Notes: generated by a model not told the origin, from the letters alone. A DNA stretch of 59,178 nt, filler included, from Stramenopiles sp. TOSAG23-6 (GCA_900128565.1; 10 parts of 10 records of this genome joined end to end with filler, not necessarily neighbours in it), one strand, 5' to 3'; counted from the whole stretch's first letter, positions 1-50,979 are shown. Made by a program: numbers and translations.

Positions 1-54
1 GTACGAAATTTTGTACCTAACGATTTTTTTTTGAAATATTTTTCCAAAATACAT

Positions 55-1038
55 GGTGTTGGTGTGTACATAAATTGTAGTCAACTGAATGATAAAAAAC
101 ATCAACTTGTGAAACCAAAAAACGTAAAAAAATTACGCACACTTTTTGAAGCAGATAAACGGTTTCATGTAAAATATCAACTCAATAATCCATATATTGC
201 CTTGATTTTGCCATTGTCAAATACAAAGATGAAAACAAATACAACAAAATCATCAACTTTGGGTGTATCGGATACTCGATTACAGCAGTCGCATCGTCAA
301 TTGTACTTATCTCAAATTGTTGAATTTTTAGAGGCAAATTTTCAAACAGATTGGGTCTTATTAAGCCTTCTAAGTCAAACCGATATTGGAATTCCTCAAT
401 GTAAAAGTCAGTATTCATTATATAAAATATTCATGGCTGATACTCGATTTGAAGTTGAAACTCGCAATGATCAAGATTATGTTCGACTTCGCTATATGTT
501 GTCAACAAAGCAGGCAACTACTTCGAATTCTTTGGAAGTTTCTGATTTTCCAACTTTATCAGCTGCATCCTCATGGTTCTCCTCTAATAGTGCTAATGAA
601 AAAGAAAATGAAGTTATGAATAAAAGAGTATCAAATTTCGTACCTAACAAATTACAAAATAGTTTTCTTGGAACAAAGATGTCCAAACAAACAAATGAAA
701 AAGAAATTGGACGTGCCAAAAAAACAATAAAGGAAACTACGACTTGCTGGGGTGTACAGCAGAAGGTGAGTAATCCATTATCTGATACCACTATGTCTAT
801 GAGTAATAGGGCAAATTCTTCAAATCATCCCAAGGTCGCACGTGATATAAAGTGGGAAATTCTTCATGGAAACAAAGATGGTAACGTGCAGTGTCACTAC
901 TGTAAGGAATGGAAATCAAAATCTATTGTATTACGTTGTGCATGTAAAGCTGTTCGATTTTGTCGCGGCGATTGTCAAAAATTAGGATGGGCGGATCATG
1001 CAGCGATGTGTAAAAAGATTCGACAAAAAAANCGTTAG
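55..1038 (+). CDS. 3' exon of a protein with a C-terminal MYND-type zinc finger (5' partial)
   Basis: CHYC..RCACKAVRFCRGDCQKLGWADHAAMC motif. Bases 1-54 are the 3' half of a family intron ending ..AAAATACAT. Confidence 0.65.
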   Translation, partial: GVGVYINCSQLNDKKHQLVKPKNVKKLRTLFEADKRFHVKYQLNNPYIALILPLSNTKMKTNTTKSSTLGVSDTRLQQSHRQLYLSQIVEFLEANFQTDWVLLSLLSQTDIGIPQCKSQYSLYKIFMADTRFEVETRNDQDYVRLRYMLSTKQATTSNSLEVSDFPTLSAASSWFSSNSANEKENEVMNKRVSNFVPNKLQNSFLGTKMSKQTNEKEIGRAKKTIKETTTCWGVQQKVSNPLSDTTMSMSNRANSSNHPKVARDIKWEILHGNKDGNVQCHYCKEWKSKSIVLRCACKAVRFCRGDCQKLGWADHAAMCKKIRQKXR

Positions 1039-1267
1039 GTATGAAATTTACTATGAAAAAATGATGTGTCGGATAATTATAATTGTAGGAATGTTGAGAG
1101 TATCCCCAAAATTGATAATACTAATGTAGTTTAATTTGGATTGTATCAAAATTAGTTTAAAAGTTGACAAAAATCCATTTTTCTTGTTTACATCATTGTC
1201 AATAAATCTTTGTAAGAGTAGACTATAAAATGAAAAGTATTTTGTCGTATTTGTTTTTATTATTCGG

Positions 1268-4200
1268 TTATTTTTTTCTCAATTTTTCCCATGGTTTAAA
1301 ATTTTGAATATTTTTACAAATTTTATCAAAGAGGTATTTTTTTTCTATTTTACTTCTATTAGGAGTACAATATACGTGGATGCAACCTAACATACTTAAA
1401 TATGCCAATCGCTCAGCTCTATTCCAATCCTCAGTGGGTTCTATTTGAATGGGTAAACGTTTTACATCTCCGTGCGGATAGCACCAATCTTTGAAGTCCG
1501 CACTCAATAAACAATTAGCGAAATCCCCACCTGTATCTAAAAAATGGTTTGGTTTCCTCCTAATTTCTTGATTTTGTTTACGATTATCTGCTTGTTGTTG
1601 CAACAGAAAACTAGTCGATGGTACCTCAATGACAAGGTAAGCGATTCGCATCCATTCGCCTATGAATCTGTGTCGCCAACCCCTTCGACAACACATAATT
1701 TGTAATAAGACTAATGCTCTTTCGTATGCAGGTGTAACATCAGTTGATTCAATATTCCGATCAAACACTGGCCAACATACTTCAAATTCTACAACACTAC
1801 ATTGCTTTCCCACAGCTCTTGAAAGTCGTAATCGCTGGATGTAATGTGAAAAAGTATGTTAAATTCGAAAATGGTCAAAATTATACTTGTTGTGAAATTT
1901 TCTAGAAAAAAAAAATTGATGATGAACACTTACATAGGTGATGGTATCAACATTCGTCTTCCATAACGCATAGTTTCGATAGCACGCAACGTCACTTCTT
2001 CAGGCCATTCTATATCCTTTCCATTATGGACAAGCATTGTCCCAGTGAGTGAAGAAATGATATCTCGAAGTTGAGGTAATACCGATTTTTCAAAAAGATT
2101 CCCAGCAAGAGCAAATCCAACTTCAGCCGGATCTACATGAGAGACTTCCATTCGCCTAAAATTTGCAGACATGACTTTGAGAATGTTTACTAACATACGA
2201 ATCCATTGATCCTCCAAAGACCTTTTTGTAGTTATACATTCATTACATATATCATTATTTAATCGCATTTGGACGGCTTTTGATAATTCTTTGCGAAAAC
2301 GGTTTATTAGATTTGCAAGGTATTCAAATACTTGTGTGGATACTTGGATCGCATATGGTGATTCTAAATCAAAAATGGATTCTTCCCATGATACGGTAGG
2401 TGGTGGTGGAGGTGATCGCATTTGCCGAAGGTAGACATCGGATAATTGTCCGAGGCATTCTAGAACTGATACTGCATAATCATAACTATTATTTGAGACA
2501 ATTGGTTGAATTCTTGGAATCGTGGCGATACCAACACTTCCGTATACATTGCGATACCAAACACTACGTTTACTTTCAAGTACCAATGCTGGATCTACCC
2601 AAACAGCATGCGCCATATCATTTGCACCTGGACAGTGTACCACAAGCTCCAATACTTCAACATCGATCACACTAATTGAGCATTGTTGCATTTGTTTTGC
2701 AAGACGAATAGGCTTTGACATCCATAGAGATTTTCCGTCTCCTTTAATTTCGAATGACACTTGAACACCAGCGCGTTTCAACTCGTCAGCTGATGCGGAG
2801 TCATTTAAAGCAACAGATGCAACAAATAAATCATATTTTGAATGAATGCAACATTTCATCCAGCTACGTCCTTGAGGAGGAGGATGCATTGATATACCCA
2901 ATTTACGATCTTTACCTTGCACTGTAATTATTGATGGTTTCGTCTTTTTCTTGCTCGTATCACGACAGCCGTCATCCAGGGAATTCCGAGTAAGATTAGA
3001 ATCTGCATCTAACATGTTCTCAAATACAATATCTGAACTTTCAACTTCTGTGGGATTTTCAAATGAACCACTAACGATGCTCATCGGATTGTCTTGACAT
3101 AGCTCACTATTTTGTACGATGTATCCTAATTGACCAGGTATTATTTTTTTTCCAACACCAAGAGAAACTTCGAGCATATCATTTTTTAAAATATCTGCAA
3201 GGAATCTAGGAGGGCTTGAGCCCATACATTCAACTTTTACCAGTCTCACAGATCTACCTGAAGAATAAAATGCAATAGCTGGAAAAACTTCTCCAAATTG
3301 ATTCATGTTTGAAAATGCGACCCCTTGTGCCTCACCATTGACTATATATTGTAACGTACCTTCGTCCATATCTAATTCACACCGTACTATATCTCCTTTA
3401 TACACTCGACGACATGTTCGATCTCTTGTGCCCCTATTGTACAAGTATCCGTTGTATGCTCTGTACATCCATAAATCTGGAGATCTTTCGTAGTTGTGGT
3501 TTGTTACAGGTTTTGTTGCAGCACCAAAACAAGTACATTGAGATGTAGTGTCTTCAGCGAGTTCAAATTCCCATGCTGCTTTGCCTGATGAAAATCCAAT
3601 ATCTAAAAGTATGGATGCATTGCTCCCCGTAGTACAATTTACAACTAATCCTCCTTCGGCAATAACTAAACCTGGATGGGATATAGACAAACTGTCGAAT
3701 ATAACATTGCTAGAAGACTTACCAACCGTTTCGCCAACCTCTTTTCTTTCATCTTCTTCTTTTACAGCATGACATCTCTTTTCAAAATCGACTCTTTCAA
3801 TTAATCGAGCAAGAAACATTTTATAATTTTCTTCTGCATGTGAAGGTAAAAAAAACATCCCAGGAAAATTTGTTGAAGAATTTAGATTTTGTCTATGGAT
3901 TCCCAAATTAGATTCTACAACGCTTAGCATATTTTGCAATGATCCACTAGCAAGAGCGAGCCATTGTAATACATTTAGACTTTTCCAGTAGAGATTGGGA
4001 TATTCTTTGAACGTTGCATCGATTTTTAAATCTCTTTTTGAATAGGATTTAGAAATTATACTTGAAAGCCACCGTTGTAAAATATTGAGACAGTCGAGAA
4101 CACCAAGGCTCCTTCTTTTCTTATGCTTACGCAACTGAACTCTCTCTATAGCATAATATCCTTCTTTATTGTTCTTATCGAAGCCTTCCATTCTCAGTCT

Positions 4201-5790
4201 CATTTTTTTCGCGTGAACAGAAAAAGGAAGAACATATCTTGATTCATCAAGCCTTGACGATGGAAGGGAGAGCAAAGTTACCCATTCGTTCTTCTCCTCT
4301 TCAGCAACATCTTCACTTATTGTTGATGGTACTGGTGAAACATCATTAGGCAAAGTTGGACTTCCATTGGCAAATAGGAGCGTATCAGAAGTCACTTCTC
4401 CACTATCACTGAGGTCTTCATTCAGCTCACAAACATCTTCAAGTCTCTCAGCAATACCATGAGTATACACGGTCGTTTCTGAAGAATCTACTACATGCAC
4501 AGATTCCCTCGTAACATCTTCGGCATGATGATCCGAAGCAAGAGGTGAAGTAGGAGTATTTCGAATTGTCCGCTGAACAGAAGATATTGGTCGAGCAGCT
4601 GAAATACGCATGCCAGTATTTGTTGAAGTTCTCACTGGTGTAACTGGCGTATCACTTTCTACATCGTTATCAGAAATTAGGCTGTCATCTAAATGCACAG
4701 ATAAATTTGAAGTATGAACGGCTAGTGTTTGATCTGATACACTTAAATCACTTATTCTTTCAGATAATCGGACCACTCCTTCATCATCCGCATTGCTAAC
4801 AGATTTTTGTTGAAGGTTACTATTATTGATTTCATTTTTACTATATTCAATATGAAGAGTAGCTGGCTTCCATCGTCCATGCCAATGTACCGAAATACTA
4901 CTGATTGCCACTCCATCATTATTCAAAATTGATTCCGAAACATTATTTTCTGACATTGTTGACACACTTTGGCCCTCACTATGGGTATCAATATCTACAT
5001 TTGCAGTATGGCTGTTCCTCGAACTCTTACTGGATGTCGAATTCCTGTTGTCTCTTTTAACAGGTATAATATTTGGTTTTGTTAGTAAAATACCCCAATA
5101 AGCATTTTCTGGCTGATAAATCGATCTCCAGTGACCATAATCTGATTGAAGCGCACGTTCTGGTCCATTTGAAGGACCAAAAGTCTCTGAAGAAAACGCA
5201 TCTGTTTCATCCGAATGAATCGCTTCATCTTCAGCTTGTCGCGGTGGGGCCCATTCAGAAAAGAGCTGCAATGGCTTAAGGCCGCGAAGCATATTCAATA
5301 AAACAGTTAATGCATGATCGATAGCCTTTGGATCCGTTTCTGCTAATGTTTTTCTGCACTCAGTTTCAGATGATTTGTCTTTGTTTTGATTTTTTCGGGT
5401 AGAAATCGATTTGGAAATATTATTACTGATACTATCTCCTACCTTTAGTGCATTAACAGCTTGGGGGTCAACAAGAGACGCGAAAAAGTATGTATTGTGA
5501 AAAAATATTTTTATTGATGAAATTTGTTAGGTACGAAATTTGGTACAAAAAAATAAATTTGAAATTGAAATGAAAACGTACATAGACCGACTTGTTTGAG
5601 TTGTTCGCTACCACAAGACTGTTTTATTTCAGTAGATTTTTCTGTATCTTCACTATTAGTCACGTTTGGAAAGGTATACTCACTGTTGTTATATTCATTT
5701 CTAGTAGGGTCAGCATCTTCGCTTCTTTGGCTAATGTGAGAAAAGTTATAACAGTCAATACTCTCTCTTGCCATGCGGCGTCTAGCGTAC
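1268..5790 (-). CDS. Large HERC/HECT-E3-like scaffold with SPRY and NPCBM domains (5' partial; exons 5790-5582, 5489-1934, 1838-1268)
   Basis: SPRY motifs (GKAAWEFEL, GDIVRCELDMDEGTLQYIVNG, FPAIAFY) and NPCBM motifs (VSFEIKGDGKSLW, HAVWVDPAL). The frame is continuous once introns 5490-5581 and 1839-1933 are removed. Confidence 0.6.
1839..1933 (-). other. Intron GT(AAGT)..AT, diverged copy
   Basis: Joins ORF 1930-5298 to ORF 1268-1813 as IPSP-I-QRLRL. The AG 4 nt downstream would cause a frameshift. Confidence 0.8.
5490..5581 (-). other. Family intron GT..AT
   Basis: Removal gives GL-Y-FFASLV, and the frame stays open into the 1122-aa ORF. Confidence 0.85.
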
Positions 5791-5886
5791 ATATATTGTG
5801 AAAAAATATTTTTTTTTGTAAAATTTGTTAGGTACGAAATTTNNNNNNNNNNNNNNNNNNNNNNNNNNNNNNNNNNNNNNNNNNNN

Positions 5887-5898
5887 TTAATTAATTAA
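5887..5898. other. Artificial contig linker TTAATTAATTAA within N runs (also 11829, 17763, 23691, 29616, 35540, 41462, 47383, 53303)
   Basis: An identical 12-mer with stops in all six frames, flanked by N runs, recurring about every 5.9 kb. Confidence 0.97.
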
Positions 5899-5964
5899 NN
5901 NNNNNNNNNNNNNNNNNNNNNNNNNNNNNNNNNNNNNNNNNNGAAATATTTTTCCAAAATGCAT

Positions 5965-8483
5965 TCGCTGATCAACCTGATACTGAGATGAGAGCAAAGG
6001 TGTGCAAACGTGCTACTCAATTGCTTGAGTTAGAAAGTATTTTGTTTCAATGTTGTGAAACATGTACGTCTTTTGTTTCTATTCTTGTTGGTAGTGGTAC
6101 AGCCACACAAAGTTCAAATATTTCTAGTAGAAAAATTAATAATGAAAATGAATCTAAAACGTCAAAAGATAAGACAACATCGAAACAAAAAGAAAAGAAA
6201 AAATTAAAACAGAAATTAAAGTTACAAAAGCTTGTAAAGAATGTTCAACAAACAATTAGAAGCTATATGCGCCCTTTAAATCCCGGAGTAGCATCGTTGC
6301 TGACATATCCAACTTTGCAATTAAAAGGCGTAGATCTAGATGGTCGAACTGATCAAGTAGAACAGTTGTCCTTGCCAGATGCTGCAATATATTGCATAGT
6401 AGAAGATATTTATGCAAAAATTCGTTTTGTTTTAAAAAATGTCGTTTCTTTACGTTTTACTAAAAAGCCATCCTCTAATCGAATGAATGTTTCACAAGGC
6501 ATGTATTTAGATGGACATACATGTATGTTTTTTTTTTTTCAATTTCGAATTTATTTTTTTTCATACGAAATTTCGTACAATACATATCAAAGCTTATTAG
6601 AGTTTTATATTGATAAAATTGGCGTATTTTCGGCGTTGCGAGGTCATGTGGACAGAATAACTACTAAAATAGACAATTTAACAAGTTCTGATCCTCCTTC
6701 ACTTGAGGAAGAGGCTGAAGATTCCAGTGATCAACAGATTCAACAAAGTTGGAAATTATTACAACTCATTTTACGTATTCTGGCTGATTTATGCTCTAGT
6801 AAAATTTTATCCGTTTCTCTACAAGGCAAAGCACTTCAAAATAGAATTATCGAATCATTCGCTCGGGATCGTCCTGTAGTTCAGCAGCCAATACTTGAAC
6901 GTTTTCATCATTCATTTCATTTTTTTTGTCCAATTTTGTTTTCATACGAAATTTTGTACCTAACAAATATTAAAAAAAAACATATTTTTCACAGAACTTG
7001 CAAGTTCTAGTTCAATAAGAACGAAATGTTTTGATCTCATCATTGAAGTAGCTCGTTGTGGCTCGTCTGTCTCCAAAATCGAGAATGTGATGCCAGCTGT
7101 CGATTTATTGGCAGCTATTGTTACTATTGAAGATCGGGACAACAAAAATGAAAAATTTTCACAAGACAAGGATGATGAAGAAGAAGAGCTGAGTATTCGA
7201 TTAAGTCGATTCTGTGGCATTTGTCTTGAACGTGATTGGTCTCGAGGAATCAAAGGATTTAGTTACAAAAGTGCCCATATATATCGAATTTTGCAATTTC
7301 TATTTGAATTCTCTCACGAACCATGTATGTTTTCATCATGAATGTAAAATTTTTGTTTTGTACTAAATTTTTTACCTAACAAGATATTTGAATTTTAAAA
7401 TATTTTTTATTATACATTGGAACAAATTCAATATTTTGCAACAACTGTATTAATGAAATTATTAGAAACTGATGGTCAGCGTGGTCCAGTAGAATCTCAC
7501 CCAACCCTAACTAAATCAACATTTCCAGTTTATTTCAAGGCAGTGCTAACATGTCTCATTCGAACATTTTCGAAAACAATGAAAAAACCGTGTACCTCAA
7601 CTGAAGCCCGGGTGTCGAAATTGAACCGCATTCGAAAAGTCATAGTGTGTTTCAAAGCTCTGGCGGAAATGACCAAAGTGATTGATAAAGCGACAGTTTT
7701 AGTCCCAATGTTACGCGCAGGTAAAGAATTACTTGAAGCAATTCATAAACCAAAAACCCAAGATTTTCTTAAAAGTTGTATGCATTTACACCACACAGAG
7801 CTAAATGATATATTGAAAAAATTACAATCAGTGACACGTCAAATGCATGTATTTTTTTTTGTACGAAATTTTGTACCTAACGATTTTTTTTTTAAATCAG
7901 GCATTTCATTTTTTTTTTCGTACCAAACATTTCGTAATCTAACAAATACTTTTGACCAATTTAGGATTTGACATATTTTTTGACTATACATAACATCTGC
8001 TCGTACGGCAAAACTCAAAAAAATGCAGCTATAAGTAGTTTAATACCTGCTTGTAAAAAGCTTTTAGAACAACATCTTTTCAACACACAATTAATAATGG
8101 AAGCATCCGGATGCCTCGATGCTTGTACATTTTCAAATTTGAATTTCGAATGTATTTGTTTTTTTTTTCGTAAAAACAATTTTATTCCTAACAAAAACTA
8201 TCAAACTTCGGAAATATATTTTTATAATACATGGTGGGTAGGTAATTTAAAAAAGCGAAATATCGATGGCACTGAAATCTCTGATGATGATGAAGCGGAT
8301 TCCTCTTCAGTCCAAGAAAGTTCTCAATTTAGTCGAAAATCTTCAGGTTGCTGGGGCGATGAAGAGGTCAAAAATACGAATTCTTCGGAAGGTGGGGGCG
8401 ATGGTAATGACAGTGATGAAACTGAAAGTAGTAGCAGTAGTAGCAGCAGTAGTGATAGCGATGATAGTGATTCTTCAGAGTAA
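5965..8483 (+). CDS. FANCI: Fanconi anaemia group I protein, C-terminal part (5' partial, five internal family introns)
   Basis: The spliced product contains LQSVTRQMH|NICSYGK and GCLDA|WWVGNLKKRNIDGTEI, matching the FANCI C-terminal ..AFWLGNLKNRDLQGEEI motif. It ends in an acidic tail. Confidence 0.8.
6523..6585 (+). other. Internally deleted family intron GT..AT (63 nt, lacks CCTAAC)
   Basis: ACAT|GTATGTTTT..TACGAAATTTCGTACAATACAT|ATC; in frame and stop-free. Confidence 0.6.
6897..6999 (+). other. Family intron with GA..TT ends, or slid GT..AG variant (6901-6994)
   Basis: An intron is needed here to bridge the frameshift between ORFs 5988 and 7087. Both boundary choices are in frame. Confidence 0.7.
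7325..7417 (+). other. Family intron GT..AT
   Basis: Contains an in-frame TGA; removal gives HEP-L-EQIQ. Confidence 0.85.
7849..7991 (+). other. Family intron GT..AT (143 nt)
   Basis: Removal gives TRQMH|NICSYGK. Confidence 0.85.
8125..8232 (+). other. Family intron GT..AT
   Basis: Removal gives the FANCI motif CLDA-W-WVGNLK. Confidence 0.85.
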
Positions 8484-8572: not shown

Positions 8573-11500
8573 TTATTGAGATACGGATAATCCTGAAACG
8601 CTAATTGGGGTCAAAATCCGGCGAGAGGATTTTAATTTCGTACGCTTTGAAGTAAATGATCGGGCAGATAAATCGCCTCTCCTCAGTCTTTCCTTTCTTT
8701 GCATAACTTCTTTACTTTCTCGTAATTTTGCCATCCGTGGGGCATTTGATTTTAAGCAACGTTCTGCCAAAAGTTTACGTTGCTGAAGTTTAGAACTATA
8801 TAAATTATCACGGGCATTACGCTTGCTCCTTGATAATCTGGATTTTCTACTTGTGTTTAACAAGTTATTGATTTTATTATACTTTTGAACTTCGGCTATG
8901 AGCATTGAAAATTCATGGAAATCTACAGTTTTGGACTCATCTGTGTCGATTGCCCTAAATAAACGTTGTGCATCTCTGTCTTTAAAAATGCCACACATTC
9001 GCATTGCTTTACGAAACTCATCGAAATTCAGCTCTTTATCTTCTATTGAAAATTCTAGTTTTGTTGATTTCGAAGAAGATGCAGATTTCTCAACTTTCTT
9101 TCCTCCTCCATGTCTAGCCCGTAGAAGCAACCGTTTAAAAGCATTTCGTGTTGCTAGTCCATCAATGTCATTAATCTCCATCAAAGACGCAGCAATCTGT
9201 TTCTTTAGATTCATCAACTCCTCGTCCTCAAATGACATTGTATGTTTTCTTTCCATCTGCTTTTTACGTTCAATTCGTTTTTCATTCAATGCATCTTCCC
9301 AATTAGCAACTTTGTCTAATTCAGCCTCATTATGTTTTGTGAAATAATATTTCAAAAACTTAATTGTTAGATATACAAAATGTTTTGAAAACGAAAAACT
9401 AAATTTGAAATTCATGATGAAAACGTACGTAGTTATTATCATCGTCGTCAAATACGAGTGATGTAAATTTGTAATAATTAATGAAACCTGTGTTTTTGGT
9501 ATCCATATCGGCAAACAATTGAGTTACAATATTTTCGGGTAGCATTACACCACAATTTCGCATCACTAGCCGGAAAAGATCGATATCGACACATAGAGAC
9601 AAATTAATGTTTTTGAGATTTTGTCGTTGTACTTCTCTATCAATCGATTTAGATTTGGATCGAAAGAATTTAAACGCACCAAGCATTTGTTTTTTCTCGC
9701 TTCTACCTTCTTTGATACTATTACGAATAAGATTAAGTACATGGCCCTTACCACGTGTAGCACTACTTTTAAAATCTAGTCTTTGTGTCTGTCTATCTCG
9801 AATACCTTTGAGTATCTGTTTTCTTCTTCTAGAGTCAACTTTATTTCCACGAAGTTGCTCATCCCATGCTGTAGCACCAAACATCATTTCTCCTAGATCA
9901 CATGGGTGTATAACTCCAGTATTATTATAATCTATGTGTCGAAAACAAGCAGATGTTAAATTTTCTTCATAAATTCGAAGGCGTCGAAGTTCTGATTTAA
10001 AAGTGTTTAAATCTACAGTTTCGGTTCCATGAAATATAATGTAGAACTGTTTCAATGCCTTTGCATCTATTTCATCCCTCGAGATGTTATGATTACCAGC
10101 TTGGATCAAGTTGATCAAACATTTTTTTACACATGCAACAGGATCATTTCTATATTGCAAGATTGCGGCAGTTTTTGCTGCCTCAGTTTTTTTTCGATCT
10201 TGAATTTTCTGTTTTTCAAAATTAAACATTGCCACATCATTATCCAAATGAGAAACAACACGATCTCCGAAAATTCCTGATAGAAACTCCGAATAATCGA
10301 TTAAACCATTACCATCGTCATCTAGTTCATTAAATAATTGATTAACGATATTATTTTGAAGCATAACACCACACCGTCGAAGGCCCATTTCAAAATGCAC
10401 TTTATCAATCATATTGGAATTTTTAGATACTCCTGCATTACATTTAAAACCACGAAAAATTGACATCATCCCATTTGCCCCTCCTTTTGCTAGTTTTGAG
10501 ATCTTATTTCTCATAAGTTCACCAACTTGTTTTTTATTTGATTGAAACACTTTCTCACGTTGCCTTTGAAACATTTCAAGTTTATTGCGCTTTTCTGCTG
10601 CTTTTTCTCGGCCCCAATCTTTCGCCGTGAATTGGATCCACTTTTCTTTCCCAAAGCAAACAGCTATAAAATCGTGCCAGTTGATTTCCCCTGTTTTTTT
10701 TACATCTAGTTTTCTAAAACATTTCAATGCCATTTTAGCATCGTAAACACCAAGCTTTCGCACAGATGTTTGAAATTGGTCAAAATCTACGAAATCAAAT
10801 TTTGTATCTTCCACACTTAATGTATTTTTATAAATTGTTGGAGTACCAATTACGATTTGATCTGGCTTCCTCGGAATTGGTTTCTTTAATACGACACCCT
10901 CCCTTTTAGCGCGTTCACGTGATTGCTTTCTAAAAACTCTAGCTACATCGGAGACAGCATCTGGTTTTTGTTGCAATTTTCGTAGAACAGTTTCCTTGAC
11001 AGTTGCAACAGGATCATGTGTAAGCGCAATCAACTTATTCTGCCGTTTTTCTCTGTTATTTTGAAGAATTTTACCCTGCTGTACATTCCAATCAGTTGCT
11101 TGTAAGGCTTCATCTGACGCATCTTTACCAAATACACCAGAGATGAATTCATTATAATCAATCGTACCATTTCCATCTTCATCTAATTGACGGAACAATT
11201 GTGAAAGAATTGATTCTCCCATAATTATACCACATTTTCGTAAGCCCTTTTTAAATTGTGCAAAATCAATAGAACAATTACGCAAATCTGATTCACCTTT
11301 TTTTCTGAAAACATTGAATGCACTATACATTTGCGTTGCACCTCCTTGTGTCCGTTGGGTGATCTTCTCCCTCAAAACATTCATTATAGATGTATTTTGG
11401 AAAAATATTTAAATTGTTTTTTGTTAGGTACAAAATTTCGTACGAAAAAAAATTGCAATTTGAAAAGAAAAAAAATAAAACATACCCTCAGGATCTTTTA

Positions 11501-11682: not shown

Positions 11683-11782
11683 ATGTATTTTGGGAAAATA
11701 TTTCAAAAAAAAAACAAAAATTGTTAGGTACAAAATTTCGTATGAAAAATGAATTCGAAATTGAAAAAAAAATAAAACATAT
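11683..11782 (-). other. Family intron AT(ATGT)..AT at a contig end
   Basis: Typical body, but the first base is A rather than G. It lies 2 nt from an N gap. Confidence 0.6.
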
Positions 11783-11884
11783 ATNNNNNNNNNNNNNNNN
11801 NNNNNNNNNNNNNNNNNNNNNNNNNNNNTTAATTAATTAANNNNNNNNNNNNNNNNNNNNNNNNNNNNNNNNNNNNNNNNNNNN

Positions 11885-29510: not shown

Positions 29511-29715
29511 ATTTTGTTTTATATTTTTTGTATTTTTTGTATTTTTTATATTTTTTGTATTTTTTATATTTNNNNNNNNNNNNNNNNNNNNNNNNNNNNN
29601 NNNNNNNNNNNNNNNTTAATTAATTAANNNNNNNNNNNNNNNNNNNNNNNNNNNNNNNNNNNNNNNNNNNNACAAATTTAAGGGGTTTTTTTTGAAATAT
29701 TTTTCCAAAATACAC

Positions 29716-34258: not shown

Positions 34259-34554
34259 AGCTACCAGAATCAAACCAAAATAGGAAGAATGGGATAGCGG
34301 ATGGATGGCCAATGGATTTGCCATCATCATTTGCTACCGCTTCTCTTGGGATCAATTTGAAATTTTCTTTGGCAAAAACGGCAAAAACGGAAAGTCCCCG
34401 AAACATCAATCAAATCGAACGGAACGGTCATTTATTTGGAATCGATCAAAAAACTTTTGGAAAAAAAAAGGACTTAAAATAATTAAAATTCACCAATTAA
34501 GTTTCAATTCACAAAGTGGTTTTGTATTTGCTTTTCACCAGAAAAAAATCCAAA

Positions 34555-35420: not shown

Positions 35421-35429
35421 GTGCGTTTC

Positions 35430-35464
<35 letters not shown>

Positions 35465-35595
35465 TGAATTTTTTTTTTTTTTTCAAAAAAATTTTNNNNN
35501 NNNNNNNNNNNNNNNNNNNNNNNNNNNNNNNNNNNNNNNTTAATTAATTAANNNNNNNNNNNNNNNNNNNNNNNNNNNNNNNNNNNNNNNNNNNN

Positions 35596-41359: not shown

Positions 41360-41517
41360 ATATATTTTGGAAAAATATTTCAAAAAAAATTTAAAAAAAT
41401 TTGTTAGGTACAAAATTNNNNNNNNNNNNNNNNNNNNNNNNNNNNNNNNNNNNNNNNNNNNTTAATTAATTAANNNNNNNNNNNNNNNNNNNNNNNNNNN
41501 NNNNNNNNNNNNNNNNN

Positions 41518-42001
41518 GATTNAATCTGCAGCTATTGCTGGTTTTCCAATGGCTATTGCATATTGTACATATGTGGGTTGGAATGGTTATAAAATAGATT
41601 ATGAAAAAGCATTTAAGATGTTTATGGATATTAGTGATTATAGTTATGCTCAATGTTATATTGGCTATTGTGTTCAATATGGTAATGGTGTTGAAGAAGA
41701 TAAAAAAGAAGCTTTAAAGTGGTATACTAAATCTGCAAATGCAGGTAATAGTGATGGACAATATGCTCTTGCTGAGTGCTATTTTGAGAGTGAAGGTGTT
41801 GCTCAAGACGACGAAGAAGGTTTCAAGTGGTATATGAAATCAGCAAATACAGGCAATTGCGCTGCACAATATAAGATTGGTGATTGCTATTATTCTGAGA
41901 GTGGTGTTGAATGCAACATAAAAGAAGCTAAAAAATGGTTTACTAAATCGGCTAAAGCTGGTTATTGCGCAGCACAAGAAGTGCTTGATCATTTTTTTTA
42001 A
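41518..42001 (+). CDS. Sel1-repeat protein, 3' part (paralog of the next gene)
   Basis: Sel1 repeats nearly identical to 43370-43851. Confidence 0.85.
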
Positions 42002-42345
42002 AATTTGTATATTGTATCAATTTATAGAGATTATTCTTGTTTCTGAAAAACTAATCATGAATACAATTACAAAGTTGTATTTCTAATTTTAATTTGATTT
42101 GAAATAATAAAAAATTGATTTTTGTTCATCATTTTTTGTTTTTCGTGTTTTTCTGGCAAGTTAGCTGCATTTGCAAATTGCAACCAGTCAGTGTACACAC
42201 GTGCACACACGTATACGTATACACGTCAGTGCCACGTCGTCAGCTGTCAAATTCAATTTTCGACAAGGCAAATTGTTTTCATTTCAACAAAATTTATTTT
42301 TCTATCAAACGATTGGCTCTTGCCCTACAAAATTATTTCGAGATA

Positions 42346-43851
42346 ATGACAAACAATGATGTGCCTGATAACTTGATGTGTCCAATTACACACGATGTAT
42401 ACGAATATCCGGTTTTTGCTGCTGACGGTCGTACATATGAACGAGCTGCAATCATGCAACACTTTCGTACAAAAAATACATCACCTTTAACAAACGAAGT
42501 GTTGCCTAATAAAAACCTTGTGACAAACTTTCGTTGTAAGTCCCAGTGTACTGAATGGAGAGAGCATCAAGCTAACCATACCGTTAATATAGATAGATTG
42601 TTATGGGAATGCTTTCAAGCAAAAAACCCTACACATATTACTCAAGCTATTACACAAATTATTGAGTTGGTCACAGAGTGTGATTCTTGCATCCTTCAAA
42701 TGTCACGTCTCAAAAAAGTGATACCTGTAGAAATGATTACAAATGAAGTTGAAGCTGCTATGGCTTCATTATACATTATATGTAAAGAAAAGAATAATAA
42801 AGTTTTTCAGGAAATTTCTAAAATAAAACAAATGAGAAAAGTCAACGAAGAATCTGTTGTTGTTTTAGAAGCCAAGATTAAAGATGAAGAAGAAGAAAAT
42901 AATACTAAACTAAAGATAGCAGAAGATGCAGTTGAAAAGGTAAAACAACGATTACCCGAAGCAGAGAAACAACTTGAGGCTGCAAAACAAAATATGGAAA
43001 AGATAAAGAGTGCTATTAAAGATGCAGAAAATGAATATAAAAAAATTGTTGAAGTTCAAAAGAAACAAACTGATCGTTTAAATGGTTTAAAAAAGTTGAC
43101 CAAAACATTTAAAGAAGAGGAGACAAGACTATCTGCTTCATTGGAATCATTTGAGGATATTGTTGTTGATGAGAATGTACCACCTGAAGTATCAAATAGT
43201 AGTAGTAGTATTGAAAAAAAACGAAAATCAAGTTCATCATCATCTAATAGGACAGTAAAATGTCAAAAGATTGAAACTAAAGGTGCACAGAATTTATTTG
43301 AACTTGGTTATGCAAAATACGAAGGTAATAACTTTCAGAAAATTGATACAGAGAATGGACGACTAATGATTGAATCTGCAGCTATTGCTGGTTTTCCAAT
43401 GGCTATTGCGTATTGTACATATGATGGTTGGAATGGTTATAAAATGGATTATGGAAAAGCATTTAAACTGTTTATGGATAATAGTGATTATAGTTATGCA
43501 CAATATTATATTGGGCATTGCTATTATACTGGGAATGGTGTTGCTCGAGACAGAAAAGAAGCATTGAAGTTGTATATTAAATCTGCTAATGCTGGTAATA
43601 GTGATGCACAATATAATCTTGGTTTTTCCTATTTTGAGGGTGATGGTATTGATCAAGACGAAAAAGAAGGTTTCAAGTGGTTTATGAAATCAGCTACTAC
43701 AGGCAATTCTTATTCACAATGTAGGGTTGGTAATTGTTATTTTGATGGTGATGGTGTTGAAGAAGATATTGAAGAAGCTAAAAAATGGTTTACTAAATCG
43801 GCTACAGCTGGTAACAAGGTAGCACAAAAAATGCTTGATGAAAGTTTTTAA
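42346..43851 (+). CDS. U-box + coiled-coil + Sel1-repeat protein
   Basis: LMCPITHDVYEYPVFAADGRTYERAAI..TSPLTNEVL (U-box); C-terminal Sel1 repeats. Confidence 0.88.
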   Translation: MTNNDVPDNLMCPITHDVYEYPVFAADGRTYERAAIMQHFRTKNTSPLTNEVLPNKNLVTNFRCKSQCTEWREHQANHTVNIDRLLWECFQAKNPTHITQAITQIIELVTECDSCILQMSRLKKVIPVEMITNEVEAAMASLYIICKEKNNKVFQEISKIKQMRKVNEESVVVLEAKIKDEEEENNTKLKIAEDAVEKVKQRLPEAEKQLEAAKQNMEKIKSAIKDAENEYKKIVEVQKKQTDRLNGLKKLTKTFKEEETRLSASLESFEDIVVDENVPPEVSNSSSSIEKKRKSSSSSSNRTVKCQKIETKGAQNLFELGYAKYEGNNFQKIDTENGRLMIESAAIAGFPMAIAYCTYDGWNGYKMDYGKAFKLFMDNSDYSYAQYYIGHCYYTGNGVARDRKEALKLYIKSANAGNSDAQYNLGFSYFEGDGIDQDEKEGFKWFMKSATTGNSYSQCRVGNCYFDGDGVEEDIEEAKKWFTKSATAGNKVAQKMLDESF

Positions 43852-44018: not shown

Positions 44019-44988
44019 TTATTTAGAAAAATAGATTGGAATTCCACTAATTGTCTTCGTTAATTTGTTACTATTTTTTCTATTATTTTTTTGAACTTTT
44101 GTATTTGTTAATAATGATAATGCAACACTATAAAGCCCTTGATGGACTATACCAAGGCGTTTTTTCTTTACTGACTCAAATATTAACTATATTGTTGAAC
44201 AATATTTTACATTTACAATTCGTTAAAAAATTGAAAAAAAAAAATTTACATTTTTAAAATTGAAAAAAAAAAATTTTAATTTTTAAAATTGAAAAAAAAA
44301 AAAAAAATGAAATTCATAATAAAAACAAACATGCCATTCATCAGGACATTCTTTGCTAGTCAAAGCAGCTAAAAATGAAGTAGCACTAGCAGTAGCAATA
44401 TCATCCATTTGAGTTGTCCAAACTTTATTTGAAAGTCTTTTTTTCCTTAATTTCGGTCCTTCGATTTATTGATGAAAAATATTTTCAATTTGTTTTTTGT
44501 TAGGTACAAAATTTACTATGAAAAAAAAAAAAATATTATTGTAACCCTAACCCTAACATACAGTTTCATTTTCTGAAAAAGTAAATTTCGCCATTCTTGT
44601 GGAATTTCTTTATCTTTTAAACATTTGTATAATTGTTTTCTTTGTACTTTAATTTCTGATTTGCTATTCATTCTTAATCGAGTTTCTTTTGCTCTTTGTA
44701 CTTCTTTTTTAATCCAAGTTAACTCGACATTTATTTTGGAAATATATTTCAAAAAAAAAATCGTTAGGTACAAAATTTCGTACGAAAAAAAAATCATACA
44801 AAAAAAATAAAACATACATATGAAATTTTTTGACTTTTTTTTTGATTCTTATTTTGTTTTTCTTCAAAATCATTCAAATTATGATCTTCATTATTAAGCA
44901 ATTTGGTATTATTTAAATGAATATCGTTAATCTTATTATTAAATGTTAACCATACTATACTTCTATACGCTAAATGTATATCTAAGTC
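44019..44988 (-). CDS. 3' exons of an unknown protein (44988-44818, 44728-44562, 44463-44331, 44186-44019)
   Basis: Phases are consistent and the frame is open across three family introns. Confidence 0.55.
44187..44330 (-). other. Family intron GT(TTGT)..AG
   Basis: Ends ..CAATATAG; removal gives DEWH|LIFES. Confidence 0.65.
44464..44561 (-). other. Family intron GT..AT containing (TTAGGG)2
   Basis: GTATGTTAGGGTTAGGGTTAC..AATAAAT. Confidence 0.7.
44729..44817 (-). other. Family intron GT..AT
   Basis: Removal gives KISY|VELTW. Confidence 0.75.
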
Positions 44989-45403: not shown

Positions 45404-45505
45404 ATGTATTGTGAAAAAAACACGAAATCATGAAAAATATCGTTAGGTACGAAATTTCGTATGAAAAAAAAATTTTAAATTAATAAATTCATGATGAAAA
45501 CGTAC
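45404..45505 (-). other. Family intron GT..AT
   Basis: Typical consensus copy. Confidence 0.8.
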
Positions 45506-45796: not shown

Positions 45797-47227
45797 AGCA
45801 GCAACTGCGCGGACAGCACGACGAACGGTACTTTGTTCAATTTGACTCAACATGGCAAAATCAGTCGCAACGCCATTCCAACCTGATTTATGCTGAACTG
45901 TCGATGTGGAAGAGGCAAAATTGACAGTCGTACCCAAAACATTCGCATTCTTTCCCATTTGTTTCAGCTTATTTTGTGTTCTTTTTTGTATTTTTTGTAT
46001 TTTTTGGTTTTTTTGTATTTTTTGGTTTTTTTGGTCATCTTTATCAATTATTTCAACTTTTTCATGTTGATTTCCATATCTTGACCCTAAACCTAATCCT
46101 ACATTTGGATGTTTGGCTATAATATTGTCTAGTAAAGCACCACCAGCACGACCAATCACAAGATCTTGAAGAAAATCATCAAAAGCTTTCTTTATCTTGA
46201 CAGTATTGGACAAATCGTTAGGGTTAGGCTTCTCATTTGTATTTGTATTTGTATTAGGGTTTATCCTTCCTACGATCAGTGAATACACTTCCTTTTCTTC
46301 CCATTCAAGTGTTTTTGCTAATTCATGATTTTTTTGATTGTCATCAAAGATATGAACGCCGTCTGGAAGTGCTTCTACACCACCACATACAAGATTTGAA
46401 GATAATTGTGTTACCATTTGTCGCTCATTTTGACCTATGTATTTTGAAAAAATATTTGAAAAAAAAAAATTCAGAATTTGTTTTCTATGAAAATTTCGTA
46501 CGAAACCAAAAAAAAAAAAAATTAAAAAAAACATACATGGAGCCAGCTACTAAAATAACCGATGAAAATGTACTACCAATACGAGCTAATATACATTGTA
46601 ATTTTGAAAGCCATTCAAGTTCAGACTCAATATCATACTTTGTAGATTTATTTTTTTCATATCCAGTGTTTAAATGATTTGTAGATTTATTTTTTTCATA
46701 TCCAGTTTTGGCCTTACCCCATGTATTGTAGAAAAATATTTCAATTTTTTTTTTTTTAGTTTCAAAAAAAAAAAAAAAATTTTTGTTAGGTACAAAATTT
46801 CGTATGAAAAAAAAAACAATTGAAAAAAAATAAAACATACATGACTCCACTCGTCGAACTAAAGCATCAATAGGATGCATTAAGCGAAGCAAAACTGGTG
46901 TTAATTCAACAGTTAGTTTTGTATGTGAAGGAAGGGTACACATACACAAAGCTATTGGAAGAAGTAATCTTGTTACAAAAGATGTATTCTGAAAAAATAT
47001 TTCAAAAAAAAAATTTCCGTAAAAAAAAATAGTTAGGTACAAAAGTTCGTACGAAAATCAAAAAACCAAAAAAAAAAAAAATAAAAAATTTAAAAAAAAA
47101 TAAAGCATACATGTTTTTAGAATTTTGACGACAGGTAAACCATCTGATATATTATTTGGCGCACACAAAACTGCTTTTACTGCATCGGAACCTCGACTAA
47201 AAAGCCGCTGAACATAATCTATGAAAC
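45797..47227 (-). CDS. Internal exons of a large alpha-helical (possibly HERC-like) protein (47227-47111, 46981-46841, 46720-46537, 46436-45797)
   Basis: The frame is open across three family introns; the family assignment is weak. Confidence 0.5.
46437..46536 (-). other. Family intron GT..AT
   Basis: Removal gives VAGS-I-GQNER. Confidence 0.8.
46721..46840 (-). other. Family intron GT..AT
   Basis: Removal gives RVES-W-GKAK. Confidence 0.8.
46982..47110 (-). other. Family intron GT..AT
   Basis: Removal gives ILKT-S-FVTRL. Confidence 0.8.
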
Positions 47228-47493
47228 ATGTTTTTTGGAAAAATATTTCAAAATTTTTTTACAAAAAAAAAAATTTGTTAGGTACAAAATTTTTATAAAA
47301 AAATAAAAAAAATATTTACTAAAAAAAAAAAAAAAAAANNNNNNNNNNNNNNNNNNNNNNNNNNNNNNNNNNNNNNNNNNNNTTAATTAATTAANNNNNN
47401 NNNNNNNNNNNNNNNNNNNNNNNNNNNNNNNNNNNNNNGTACGAAATTTTGTACCTAACGAATTTTTTTTTGAAATATTTTTCCAAAATACAT

Positions 47494-48284
47494 TTTATCC
47501 AAGGACCTTGTCGAATATATAGTGTTCAATGAAAAATTTCTTGTGAATTCGCTTTGGGATGATGAAGATGACGGAGCTCATGAAGACTCTGTCATTGGTC
47601 TATGGATGTTTGCTATTGGCGTTAAAGTTGAGCATGAAAGTCGATTTAGTATGTATGTTTTTTTTTTTTTTTCAATTTTGAGTTTTTTTTTCGTACGAAA
47701 TTTTGTACCTAACAAATTAAAAAAAAAATTGAAATATTTTTCCAAAATACATATTAAGTTATTGTCGTTTTGAATCTATTGCATTATTTGATGTTCCAAT
47801 GAAATGCATGGAATCTGTGGTGTATCAAATGCAAAACAAAGATACGATGTGTGCGCCATGCATACGGTATCACACAATTGAAAAAGCTGATGTGGAATTA
47901 AAAAGTATTACAGCTCACAGTACTTCACTTAGTGTAACGACACCAAATTTACAAATGTTGCATATTCAAATTGGATTACTAAATACGCAAGGGACAATGT
48001 ATGCATTACTTTTAGATTTGAAATCTGCAACAGAAAAATTTTCTGCTGCTGCACTTGCATCACCAGAGACTGAATCAGTTGCACAAAATTTACGATTTGT
48101 TGAACTTTGGCTTCGAAAATTAGAAAACATCGAAAATGAAGAAACGAAACCTTCAATTTGTAGTGCAGTAGAATTCTGTGTTACAGCTGTGGTAAATGCA
48201 TTTGAGAATGCGATTGCAAGGCGTGCAAAACTCATTAGCGTTCCTCATTATCAGAAACTAGAAGACTTGGCTATTAAGTTTTGA
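47494..48284 (+). CDS. 3' exons of an unknown protein (47494-47652, 47753-48284)
   Basis: ORFs 47522 and 47799 are joined by intron 47653-47752. Confidence 0.55.
47653..47752 (+). other. Family intron GT..AT
   Basis: Removal gives RFS-I-LSYCRF, in frame with ORF 47799. Confidence 0.8.
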
Positions 48285-48344: not shown

Positions 48345-48668
48345 TTAAACAGTGACTATTTTATTATGAATACGGCGCCAAGCACTAAATTTCCCCTTAA
48401 AACGCAATGTACCATCACCCCGAAGGCGTTCTGCATGAATATCAAAGTATTCTTGGAGTTTTTCTCTGGATTTTACGACATATGTCGCAACCATTTTCTT
48501 TTGAGGTGAGCTTTCTTCAACTTTAGGAATTTCCTCAACATTGGCAAGTTGAGCTGAGATAAAACCATCTATTGTTAGCATTTCCTTCATATGCGGAATA
48601 AGCCAGTCAGTATATTCTTTAACAATGTCTCTGTCTATAGACAAGTTAACCTCATAGATCACAGACAT
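48345..48668 (-). CDS. DUF4286 family protein
   Basis: VIYEVNLSID..WLIPHMKEMLTIDGF..LQEYFDIHAERLRGDG..RF. Confidence 0.75.
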   Translation of the reverse strand: MSVIYEVNLSIDRDIVKEYTDWLIPHMKEMLTIDGFISAQLANVEEIPKVEESSPQKKMVATYVVKSREKLQEYFDIHAERLRGDGTLRFKGKFSAWRRIHNKIVTV

Positions 48669-48895
48669 TGCAAAATGCACTTTGGTAATAGATAATTATT
48701 ATTACAAGGTACTTGAGAGTGTCCGTATCTACATTCATCATCAAAGTTGAGTCGAGTCAAAAAACGTCAAAAAATGAATTTGGAATTTAGGAGAGATTTT
48801 TTTCAGTTACACGACGTTACACAACTACTTTTACATAAAAAAGTGAAGCAAGTGTCTCTCACAGGTTGAGAAATTTATTATTTTAGCATTTCAAT

Positions 48896-50979
48896 ATGTC
48901 AGAAGAAGCCGAAACCGAAGTTATTGAAGAGTTTTTGTTGACTGACGATGAAGATGAAGAGTTTAATTATGATGATGTTCCAGATCATACGTTTAGCTCT
49001 GATGAAGACGATGATGAAGACCTCGAAACCGCATTAAGGTCACTGAACCGAGGTGAGAAGAAAAACTTTACTGATGATGACAGTGCATCAATACAAGTTC
49101 TATCAGAAACAGCTGTGAAACCATCAGTTGTCGACGATTTCATTCGCAATTTTTTAATTAAAATGGGCATGATGAGAGCTTTAGAAAGTTTTAATACAGA
49201 GTGGTATCAATTGCAAATGCGTAAAAATGTAAATAAAACGGATTTGGAAGATGTTCCTGATATTTATTTACAGAATCAAAAACTGAATAGGCAAATACAA
49301 GAAATGAGCAATGAAGTTTCTCAAATGAAAATTGTTGCTGATAAAGCCCAAGGAACGTGGGATAAGTTCAGAAAAGAACGCGACTTTCACCGCATGCATC
49401 ATGTACGTTTTCATTATAAATTTCATTTTTTTTTCATACGAAATTTTGTACCTAACGATTTTTTTTTAACCAAAAAAAAATAGTTTTTCACAATACATAA
49501 GCGAGTTGTACAGGAAAAGGATAAACTCGTCAAAAATATACGACGCTTAAAAAAACATTATGCTGGTTATGAACCTGCACTCAAATCAATACGTCAGAAA
49601 TACGAGCAAATAACTAAAGCTAAAATGTTGCTCACTCTTGAACGAGATCGACTTTTAGGTAAAAACAAAACTTTAGAGGAAGCTCTTTTGAATGTGACTC
49701 AAAATTCTGCGAAGGGCAAAAAACGCCAGGAGAATAAGAATAAAGGTCCTAAAAGTACTAGTAGAGCTACAAATGTAAAGAAAACGACAAAAAAAGCAAA
49801 AGATAGAAAAGGAAAAGTTGATTCACGAATCCCAACAAATCCTGTGAATAATCCGTATGTTAATATGGAATTCGATGCGAGTGATGCGGAAAATTTTTGC
49901 CTTCAAAAAACGTTTAAAGGCCACCTTAATCCTGTTGCTGCCATGGCGTTTCATCCAAAGAAACCTATTCTTGCAACTGTTAGTGATGATGAGACGTGGA
50001 AAATGTGGTCTGCTCCTAACGGTGAGTTAATAATGAGTGGCGAGGGTCATAAAGATTGGTTAGCCGGAGTCGATTTTCATCCAAGTGGCTCTCAGTTAGC
50101 AACTTGCTCTGGAGACAGTGATGTAAAATTATGGGATTTCGTTGCCGCTAGCTGCTCTCATACTTTCACAGAACATACACAAGCTGTGTGGGATGTGTCA
50201 TATCACCATGCAGGAGATTTTATTGCGTCATGTTCAATGGATCATACTTCGAAACTTTGGGATTTACACACACAAAAGTGTAGGCAAACATTTAGAGGTC
50301 ATGTATGTTTTATTTTTCATAGCATTTTTTTTAATCTACACTTTTTTTCATACGAAATTTTGTACCTAACGAATTTTTTACTAAAAAAAAAATATTTGTT
50401 CACAATACATGTAGATTCTGTGAATTCTATAATTTTCCAACCATTCACAAATAATATTTGTACTGCTAGTGGTGACAAAACTGTCTCAATTTGGGACATT
50501 CGATCTGGATTGTGTGTACAAACATTTTATGGGCATATGAATTCCTGTAATTCTGTTGCCTTTACATTAAACGGACAGACTATTGCGTCGTGTGTACGTT
50601 TTTATTTCAAATTTCGATTTTTTTTTTTTTTCGTATGAAATTTTGTACCTAACAAAATTTTAATTTTTTTTTCAAATATTTTTTCACAATATATGATGCA
50701 GATGGAATTGTCAAGTTTTGGGACATACGAACGATTCAACAAATTGGTGAAATGGACGCAGGACCACACCCTGCAAATAAAGTCGATTTTGATAGATCTG
50801 GTGAAATTCTTGCTGTGGCATCTGATGATGCGACTATTAAAATATTTGAGACAAAAACACTCAAATATGTAAAAGAATTACAAGGTCATGAAGACGCGGT
50901 CCAAGCAGTTCTTTTTGATCCAACAGGCAAATTTTTAGTTTCTGCTGGATCTGACTGTACTTTCCGTATCTGGTCCTAA
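48896..50979 (+). CDS. SPAG16: Flagellar central-pair WD40 protein PF20/SPAG16 (exons 48896-49402, 49499-50302, 50411-50593, 50695-50979)
   Basis: VVDDFIRNFLIKMGM..FNTEWY, KERDFHRMHH|KRVVQEK, and seven WD40 repeats. Confidence 0.92.
49403..49498 (+). other. Family intron GT..AT
   Basis: Restores RMHHKRVVQEK. Confidence 0.9.
50303..50410 (+). other. Family intron GT..AT
   Basis: Restores FRGHVDSVN. The AG 4 nt downstream would cause a frameshift. Confidence 0.9.
50594..50694 (+). other. Family intron GT..AT
   Basis: Restores IASCDADGIVKFWD. Confidence 0.9.

Follow-up and report, generated by a model that had tools for sequence, protein, structure and literature searches.

Repeated introns with mainly GT-AT borders in genes of a putative MAST-3-type marine stramenopile

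In the present study, we analysed a window of 59,178 nt of DNA from Stramenopiles sp. TOSAG23-6 (GCA_900128565.1), in which unrelated genes are interrupted by copies of one short repeated element. These copies form a single family, lie in sense orientation, restore the reading frame when they are excised and are left out at exact non-AG junctions, two of them seen in RNA and five fixed by homology. It is likely that they represent a family of introners resembling miniature inverted-repeat transposable elements (MITEs) in a marine stramenopile (MAST) of the MAST-3 type, each copy having its own 5' splice site and branch site and using a duplication as a non-AG 3' splice site. The window is not a single locus, as it consists of ten contigs joined every ~5.92 kb by linkers of N44, TTAATTAATTAA and N44. 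The contig pieces are sorted by size, falling steadily from 5842 to 5820 bases, and hence genes which flank a linker are not genomic neighbours. The G+C content across the window is 24-38% and long open reading frames (ORFs) are present under the standard code. The same DNA was also matched in seawater metagenomes and, in small part, in seawater metatranscriptomes. The host is taken to be a MAST-3-type marine stramenopile on the basis of a source's name: when an exon of the SPAG16 gene was used as a query, the protein was identical over the exons to the assembled coding sequence that its source calls eukprot:GSMAST32.ASY1.ANO1.286.1. The next SPAG16 matches have at most 62% identity, and those named by their source are mostly stramenopiles (MAST-4, oomycetes, brown algae).

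The size of the family was determined by an nhmmer profile made from 10 full seed copies and run over the whole window. This gave 61 matches at E<=1, including 46 at E<1e-3, all of them within positions 2-50,697 and on nine of the ten contigs. The element is typically about 90-130 nt long. For detailed counts 36 complete copies (63-143 nt) were curated; they lie in about 15 unrelated genes on nine contigs, and their pairwise identity has a median of 71% with a range of 54-92%. The preliminary description of this DNA had held that one repeat family supplies the introns and had tallied 41 copies, with ends dominated by GT and AT. The first statement agrees with the 46 significant matches and the second is close to our own counts (GT at 34 of the 5' ends, AT at 30 of the 3' ends); our number is smaller because degenerate copies and copies at contig ends were left out. 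About 10 of the 20 contig ends fall within copies, which is the expected assembly effect of a high-copy repeat. In addition, the summed depth of contigs over the element (36789-36982, 37371-37564 and 40863-41417) exceeds that over exons by factors of hundreds to thousands, in DNA metagenome as well as RNA runs, a value that is not a copy number. The excess gives a hint of a very large family and of common element RNA, be it unspliced, excised or carried-over DNA. A metagenome scan with the 19-nt core of the element found three loci, all of them chance matches lacking the rest of the element.

The consensus of the element begins with 5' GTAtGTTTt, continues through a T-rich variable part to cgTACgAAATTTTGTACCTAAC and a T-run, and ends with 3' gAAATATTTTTtcAcAATACAT. 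At the 5' end of the 36 copies the counts are G1 34, T2 36, A3 34, Y4 36, G5 32 and T6 34, and every copy reads G/A-T-A/T-Y-G/T/A-T/C. The 3' end shows A in 35 copies at -4, C in 32 at -3, A in 34 at -2 and T in 32 at -1; this consensus, A-C-A-T, fits the YAU pattern that had previously been proposed for the 3' site. The end of the upstream exon leans to CAT (-3 C 16, -2 A 24, -1 T 28). The motif CTAAC was found in 28 of the 36 copies, with 31-65 nt (mostly 32-45) from the A of this branch motif to the 3' end. The consensus has the T-run downstream of the branch motif and contains no AG from that motif to its end. With the borders set in the element register, the 5' ends are GT in 34 copies and AT in two, and the 3' ends are AT in 30, AG in two, GT in two, AC in one and AA in one. 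Combined into border pairs these make GT-AT 29, GT-AG 2, GT-GT 2, GT-AA 1, AT-AT 1 and AT-AC 1. Judged by sequence features, the copies have the GT 5' end and the CTAAC-like branch motif of introns of the major (U2-type) spliceosome and generally lack its canonical AG 3' end.

Excision of the segment from GTAYGT to ...AATACAT joins the longest flanking ORFs in frame at 35 of the 36 curated copies, where chance would give one third. In a first pass with automatic delimiting, 28 of 31 were in frame. The lengths of the copies are mostly not multiples of three, so that they cannot simply be read through. Furthermore, all 36 copies are in sense orientation relative to the interrupted ORF.

The preliminary description had suggested transcript junctions as a check, and two contigs from the polyA metatranscriptome run X8 lack the element at the predicted non-AG borders. 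In record 17, position 36876 is joined to 36975 and 98 nt are skipped, which equals the intron 36879-36976 within its slide range. In record 18, position 37370 is joined to 37464 and 93 nt are skipped, which in the same way equals the intron 37372-37464. Both joined contigs have 0-2 mismatches and neither junction can be read as AT-AC. For the introns 37122-37209, 38814-38909, 40944-41044 and 41122-41212 there was no bridging RNA contig among the matches listed, a result that is uninformative either way.

Five further junctions were fixed by homology. For SPAG16, 60 homologues were aligned and the counts rest on 38 of them. At the first junction, HRMH|HKRVVQEK, all 38 read HRMHHKRVVQEK without insertion; at the second, GH|VDSVN, 37 of 38 have GHVDS[VI]N and one has GHVDCVN; at the third, SC|DADG, the residues D-[AS]-D-G follow directly past the junction in 38 of 38. 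The public model of this gene (48896-50976) forces canonical sites and errs at each of the three element junctions, since it has an extra FFTIH at the first, GHVYSVN (Y for D) at the second and SC-VHG (VH for DAD) at the third. Exon 1 of the SNF2/RAD5-like gene ends at the residue aligned with 895 of RAD5 (6l8n_A), exon 2 begins at the one aligned with 896, and these exon ends are also adjacent in 1z5z and in the ISW1 and CHD1 chains. The Helicase_C profile stands at 107 of its 110 positions where the exon ends (12860-12968). In NPRL2, the junction IAMC|DAFQYSN, at the GT-GT copy 41122-41212, is gapless in all five spanning homologues; the NPRL2 exons also map to the human NPRL2 structure, too loosely to fix a junction. 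Accordingly, the protein motifs that the preliminary description regarded as rebuilt at the non-AG end, QAINRVH|RIGQ in SNF2, RMHH|KRVVQEK and RGH|VDSVN in SPAG16 and C|DAFQYSN in NPRL2, are all upheld by homologues. The gene which it named FANCI has to be renamed, as the Pfam match of the gene at 5943-8480 (+) is FancD2 (profile 799-980 and 1223-1342); this gene carries six element introns in 2.5 kb. Homologue searches with an exon of the FANCD2-like gene and with a DUF1647-like gene, which cover eight junctions including 25135-25225 (GT-GT) and 26002-26103 (GT-AA), found none. Overall, seven junctions have independent support (two by RNA, three in SPAG16, one in SNF2 and one in NPRL2), and none of them is at an AG.

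The borders of the element carry traces of how it may have been inserted. In 21 of the 36 copies the intron ends in the same 2 nt as its 5' flank (P=0.003 when the pairing was shuffled). In 19 copies the flank is AT, a dinucleotide with a background frequency of 0.098; the two copies that end in GT are both preceded by GT, and the one that ends in AC is preceded by AC. This direct repeat looks like a target-site duplication of 2 nt, perhaps longer. The element proper, GTAY...ATAC, has a short terminal inverted repeat, which together with the AT repeat becomes ATGTAT pairing with ATACAT (~6 nt), and the minimum-energy fold pairs these extreme ends in 20 of the 36 copies. The centre of the element is palindromic, GTACGAAATTTCGTAC, and its halves are alike in reverse complement. 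These features suggest a foldback MITE. As in introners, the copies are multi-copy introns in unrelated genes and have terminal inverted repeats, which are short and include the duplicated AT. In the longer copies 7849-7991 (+) and 20468-20600 (-), the element core seems to have been duplicated internally or inserted again in nested form.

According to the mechanism that we propose, one family of small foldback elements would have colonised genes and would act as introns, i.e. as introners. Each copy would contribute GTAYGTTTT as a 5' splice site of yeast-like form, TTTGTACCTAAC as a branch motif with a T-run behind it, and ATATTTTTYCAMAATAC as a conserved 3' block; on either side of it would stand a direct repeat of 2 nt, in most cases AT. 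Removal from RNA would start at the G of GTAYGT and stop after the 3' copy of the repeat, so that the element and one repeat are lost and the frame that existed before insertion is restored. The duplicated AT would serve as the 3' splice site ...ACAU|, at the distance from the branch A given above, and AGs lying in between would be skipped. We infer that the major spliceosome removes the elements because GTAYGT and CTAAC are their best conserved blocks, their orientation is strictly sense and a T-run follows the branch motif. Its first step would be conventional and the site of the second step would be read loosely, with the A at -2 kept and -1 free (mostly U, also G, C and A). In spliceosome structures, the A at -2 contacts the branch adenosine and the last G contacts the first G of the intron. 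On that geometry, the contact of the -2 A would be kept and the contact between the last base and the first G would be relaxed. Scans of the window with Rfam models and for tRNA were empty and returned no small nuclear RNA (snRNA).

A broader proposal, which we put forward tentatively as a plausible one, is that the MAST-3-type lineage has re-specified the 3' site of its major spliceosome. In this proposal the site has retained its A at -2, its last base is normally U but unconstrained, it lies ~32-45 nt past the branch point with AGs ignored, and nearly all introns stem from one MITE, the 2-nt target duplication of which turned into the site. The transposon origin and the genome-wide extent of the family are suggested by the features described above. 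Canonical GT-AG introns may coexist with the element introns, as the public SPAG16 model takes out two further short in-frame GT...AG stretches, putative introns of 45 and 51 nt (~49053-49097 and ~49745-49795), in variable regions.

Several observations weigh against the interpretation of the copies as introners spliced at a duplicated, non-AG border. The copy 26240-26316 is the sole failure of the frame test among the 36, and 15 of the 36 copies are without the 2-nt direct repeat. The fold energies are weak (mean z -0.76 versus shuffles). The RNA junctions number two, both from assembled metatranscriptome contigs and not from raw reads, and the joined forms of run X8 could formally come from intron-free alleles in carried-over DNA. 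In the non-polyA library of run X9, record 27 is unspliced from 38831 across the 3' end of the intron 38814-38909 into the exon. At the second NPRL2 junction (40944-41044) there is a length difference of 7-11 residues from the homologues. In addition, for 23 of the 36 copies an alternative AG could be used in frame and without a stop, mostly at the cost of 3-45 nt of exon; use of AG at the 29 copies that lack independent evidence is nonetheless unlikely.

The best surviving alternative, although an unlikely one, is a non-spliceosomal machine that reads the hairpin of the intron ends, as suspected in euglenids. It would suit the end pairing found in 20 of the minimum-energy folds, the short direct repeats overlapping the borders, the position of the two cuts, which are offset by 2 nt on the end stem, and the borders that vary with the repeat in the GT-GT and AT-AC copies. 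However, conservation is highest in GTAYGT and CTAAC, and a sense orientation of all 36 copies would be needless for a near-symmetric foldback if the stem alone mattered. The remaining 16 copies are without end pairing, and the weak z-scores also speak against a hairpin-reading machine.

It is very improbable that the real acceptors are nearby canonical AGs and that the AT ends are an artefact of delimiting. The alternatives counted above, the two AG-ended copies (three if one border is slid by 1 nt) and the public SPAG16 model, which uses such AG sites, would be in line with this. On the other hand, the AG alternative was rejected at each of the seven independently checked junctions, and at these the use of nearby AG acceptors, which the preliminary description had named as a refutation, is contradicted. 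In 13 of the 36 copies there is no in-frame, stop-free AG acceptor for the same donor, and the family consensus has no AG from the branch motif to the end. An AG does occur between the branch A and the 3' end in 11 of the 28 copies with CTAAC, and three verified introns skip such an AG, 36879-36976 by RNA and 49403-49498 and 12860-12968 by homology.

Even less can be said for AT-AC introns, of the U12 type or of the U2 type, with the borders lying 2 nt to the left (AT|GTAYGT...AATAC|AT). The frame fixes only the length of the intron, and a short direct repeat at the borders allows them to slide. Because of this repeat, 18 of the 36 copies, with a 5' flank ending in AT, can be read as AT-AC as well. 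A first A and a last C of an intron are a known compensating combination in yeast, which would support such a reading. However, 12 copies are readable as GT-AT but not as AT-AC, and AT-AC is excluded at both RNA junctions and at the third SPAG16 junction, so that it could survive only as part of a mixed system. The U12 5' motif [AG]TATCC, or in full [AG]TATCCTT, is present in none of the 36 copies, and the branch motif lies 31-65 nt from the 3' end, whereas the branch site of U12-type introns lies ~10-26 nt from it. The border options of the six verified AT-ended junctions have one pair in common, GT-AT. If sliding is allowed, every copy can present A at -2.

Excision at the DNA level, of the type of the internal eliminated sequences (IESs) of ciliates, or an origin of the joined contigs from element-free strains, would equally predict the exact loss of the element with one short repeat and could draw on RNA evidence that consists of environmental-library contigs, but it is highly improbable given that the copies carry splice and branch motifs and lie strictly in sense, and given the long ORFs under the standard code, the joined forms in a polyA RNA run and the fact that no joint among the DNA-run matches listed is a clean deletion of one element.

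The copies, their relatives and the linkers are collected in table 1.

Table 1. Element copies, related sequences and linkers in the window. Borders of the curated copies are from the frame test and the border-slide options, unless another basis is stated.
Position	Strand	Feature	Basis
2-57	+	Contig-end copy, 3' half only	
1835-1926	-	Degenerate relative GTAAGT...TTACAT between two minus-strand ORFs; outside the curated set	
5490-5581	-	Intron GT-AT (AT-AC reading also possible)	Frame-compatible
6523-6585	+	Short 63-nt copy in FANCD2-like gene, GT-AT; 6-nt direct repeat; without CTAAC	Frame; Pfam FancD2
6901-6994	+	Divergent copy ending CACAG, GT-AG	Frame-compatible
7325-7417	+	Intron GT-AT	
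7849-7991	+	Composite 143-nt copy with two core/branch-like motifs, GT-AT	
8125-8232	+	Intron GT-AT, AT-AC impossible	
9332-9428	-	Intron GT-AT, borders unambiguous	
11390-11485	-	Intron GT-AT, borders unambiguous	
12860-12968	+	Intron GT-AT of SNF2/RAD5-like gene; internal AG 30 nt before end bypassed	Structure homologues
20468-20600	-	133-nt copy with duplicated core, without CTAAC (TACTTTCG / TACTTACG instead), GT-AT	Frame-compatible
20749-20858	-	Copy ending ATACAG, GT-AG	
21448-21547	-	Intron GTTCGT...ACAT	
25135-25225	+	Intron GT-GT (GT-AC if shifted by 2); 5' flank ACGT = intron end ACGT	
25809-25915	+	Intron GT-AT, AT-AC impossible	
26002-26103	+	Intron GT-AA (TA-AG if shifted by 1)	
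26240-26316	-	Short copy, sole frame-test failure	
28439-28528	-	Intron ATATGT...ATATAT (AT-AT)	
28566-28679	-	Intron GT-AT	
29819-29921	+	Intron GT-AT	
30020-30111	+	Intron GTATTT...ACAT	
36879-36976	-	Intron GT-AT (or TA-TG, AC-GT; AT-AC excluded); AG 18 nt past branch A bypassed	RNA contig
37122-37209	-	Intron GT-AT	
37372-37464	-	Intron GT-AT (or TG-CA, TA-TG; AT-AC excluded)	RNA contig
38814-38909	+	Intron ATACGT...ATACAC (AT-AC); 5' flank CAC = intron end CAC	
40944-41044	-	NPRL2 intron GT-AT; homologues gapped by 7-11 residues here	
41122-41212	-	NPRL2 intron GT-GT (or GT-AC)	Homologue alignment
44464-44561	-	Intron GT-AT; TTAGGG x2 near 5' end (44540-44561)	
44729-44817	-	Intron GT-AT (...ATAAAT)	
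45404-45505	-	Intron GT-AT	
46437-46536	-	Intron GT-AT; without CTAAC	
46721-46840	-	Intron GT-AT; longest branch-to-end distance (65 nt)	
46982-47110	-	Intron GTATGC...ACAT	
47653-47752	+	Intron GT-AT	
49403-49498	+	SPAG16 intron 1, GT-AT; in-frame AG 15 nt before end bypassed	Homologues
50303-50410	+	SPAG16 intron 2, GT-AT	Homologues
50594-50694	+	SPAG16 intron 3, GT-AT, AT-AC excluded	Homologues
5788-5842 (-), 11683-11784 (-), 17628-17701 (-), 29673-29716 (+), 41356-41417 (-), 47226-47303 (-), 47439-47493 (+)		Further copies cut by contig ends	
629-665 (+), 1008-1061 (-), 23470-23604 (+), 45109-45207 (-)		Other relatives outside the curated set	
5843-5942, 11785-11884, 17719-17818, 23647-23746, 29572-29671, 35496-35595, 41418-41517, 47339-47438, 53259-53358		Linkers	

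Some genes of the window are free of the element. These include, by Pfam, an RPC40/Rpb3-like RNA polymerase subunit at 27070-28119 (+), a NOG2-like GTPase at 57448-58827 (-) and a FAD-dependent oxidoreductase at 34501-35493 (+). The tenth contig (53359-59178) has no copy of the element. On this contig, the stop codon TAA of the ORF 53361-54773 overlaps an ATG (TAATG, 54770-54776), from which the next long ORF, with HEAT and WD40 repeats, continues to 57310; the pair represents two abutting genes or a single frameshifted gene. Other repeats were also observed. Nine tandem repeats of 75 nt (25 amino acids) lie at 30937-31611 (+) within the ORF 30245-31807, and the neighbouring minus-strand ORF at 33557-34333 matches DUF4116; the 75-nt repeat is presumably of the same kind. 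There are two blocks of three 108-nt repeats at 41644-41991 and 43494-43841 (+), the second inside a protein with U-box and Sel1 repeats (42103-43848). Short telomere-like runs lie within the 5' part of the intron 44464-44561 (TTAGGG x2, 44540-44561) and, as TTAGAG/TTAGGG variants, at 20240-20275 (-), directly past the stop codon of a gene that ends at 20276.

The 3' AG is among the most constant signals of eukaryotes, and conventional 5' and branch sites combined with AU would be an experiment of nature on the requirements of the second catalytic step. The pattern of a kept A at -2 and a relaxed -1 is directly testable. These introns would add a heterotrophic stramenopile to the few cases in which a transposon burst was accompanied by a change in splice-site tolerance, here with one border still canonical. 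In practical terms, gene callers that force GT-AG mis-splice such genes, as happened at three of three junctions in SPAG16. If SPAG16 is typical, the proteomes of this group of abundant marine grazers would be faulty at almost every intron; the repeats, moreover, break assemblies.

Transposon-derived introners are known in Micromonas, Aureococcus, Chrysochromulina, Florenciella and others (PMC9860276, PMC11282704). Like these, the present element is one multi-copy family in unrelated genes of an aquatic protist, has short terminal inverted repeats, carries some splice signals itself and would take another from the target-site duplication or insertion site. Those introners are spliced at canonical borders, whereas here the co-opted duplication would give an AT 3' end and not an AG. 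A later introner survey dropped families with mainly unfamiliar splice sites unless transcripts supported them (PMC12130899). The literature check called for by the preliminary description is consistent with novelty, as neither GT-AT introns nor MAST-3 introners were found reported in the main texts of open full texts, subscription journals being outside this scope. The main text of a paper on MAST single-cell genomes has no 'splic' or 'canonical', and a 2026 preprint on single-cell genomes of marine protists has no 'splic'.

Among systems with non-canonical borders, the MITE-derived introns of Fritillaria borealis are similar in having terminal inverted repeats, target-site duplications and a 3' AC or AT, that is, an A at -2 and no fixed last base, and they are removed by a spliceosome that became tolerant (PMC11282704). 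Fritillaria is a tunicate in which the 5' end is mostly AG, with AG-AC, AG-AT and many other combinations (PMC11282704), whereas the present family, in a stramenopile, has GTAYGT and a branch motif, with one border pair in 29 of 36 copies. The introners of Amoebophrya are likewise repeated non-canonical introns of a marine protist, with direct repeats over the borders (3-5 nt there) and inverted repeats that pair the ends, and they also disrupted standard gene prediction (PMC7789003). They differ in having no dominant dinucleotide pair, and a U1 snRNA was not found in that organism (PMC7789003), while our family conserves GT (34 of 36) and CTAAC and has an inverted repeat of only ~6 nt. Removal of the hairpin type has been discussed for the Amoebophrya introners and suspected for the nonconventional introns of euglenids. 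The nonconventional and 'intermediate' introns of euglenids share non-AG borders, end pairing and repeats like target-site duplications, the 'intermediate' ones mixing both sets of features (PMC11282704, PMC4770533). Unlike ours, in which GT (34 of 36) is joined by a T-run, the nonconventional euglenid introns have no 5' GT and no pyrimidine tract. They leave as full-length circles by an unknown machine (PMC11282704), and their ends are held together by pairing of +4..+6 with -8..-6. Polarella is another case of transposon-derived introns with non-canonical borders (PMC11282704, PMC7789003, PMC9860276, PMC12130899). The AT-AC introns resemble the present ones in a non-AG 3' end with A at -2, and half of our copies can formally be read in that way; the missing U12 5' motif, the branch site far from the 3' end and three verified junctions set our introns apart. 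Ciliate IESs are free in orientation, bounded by a short repeat and absent from somatic DNA; the present copies are all in sense and their joined form occurs in polyA RNA. Taken together, introners with non-canonical borders are already known, and the present case differs from them in the retention of textbook 5' and branch sites, the dominance of one non-AG pair and the heterotrophic stramenopile host.

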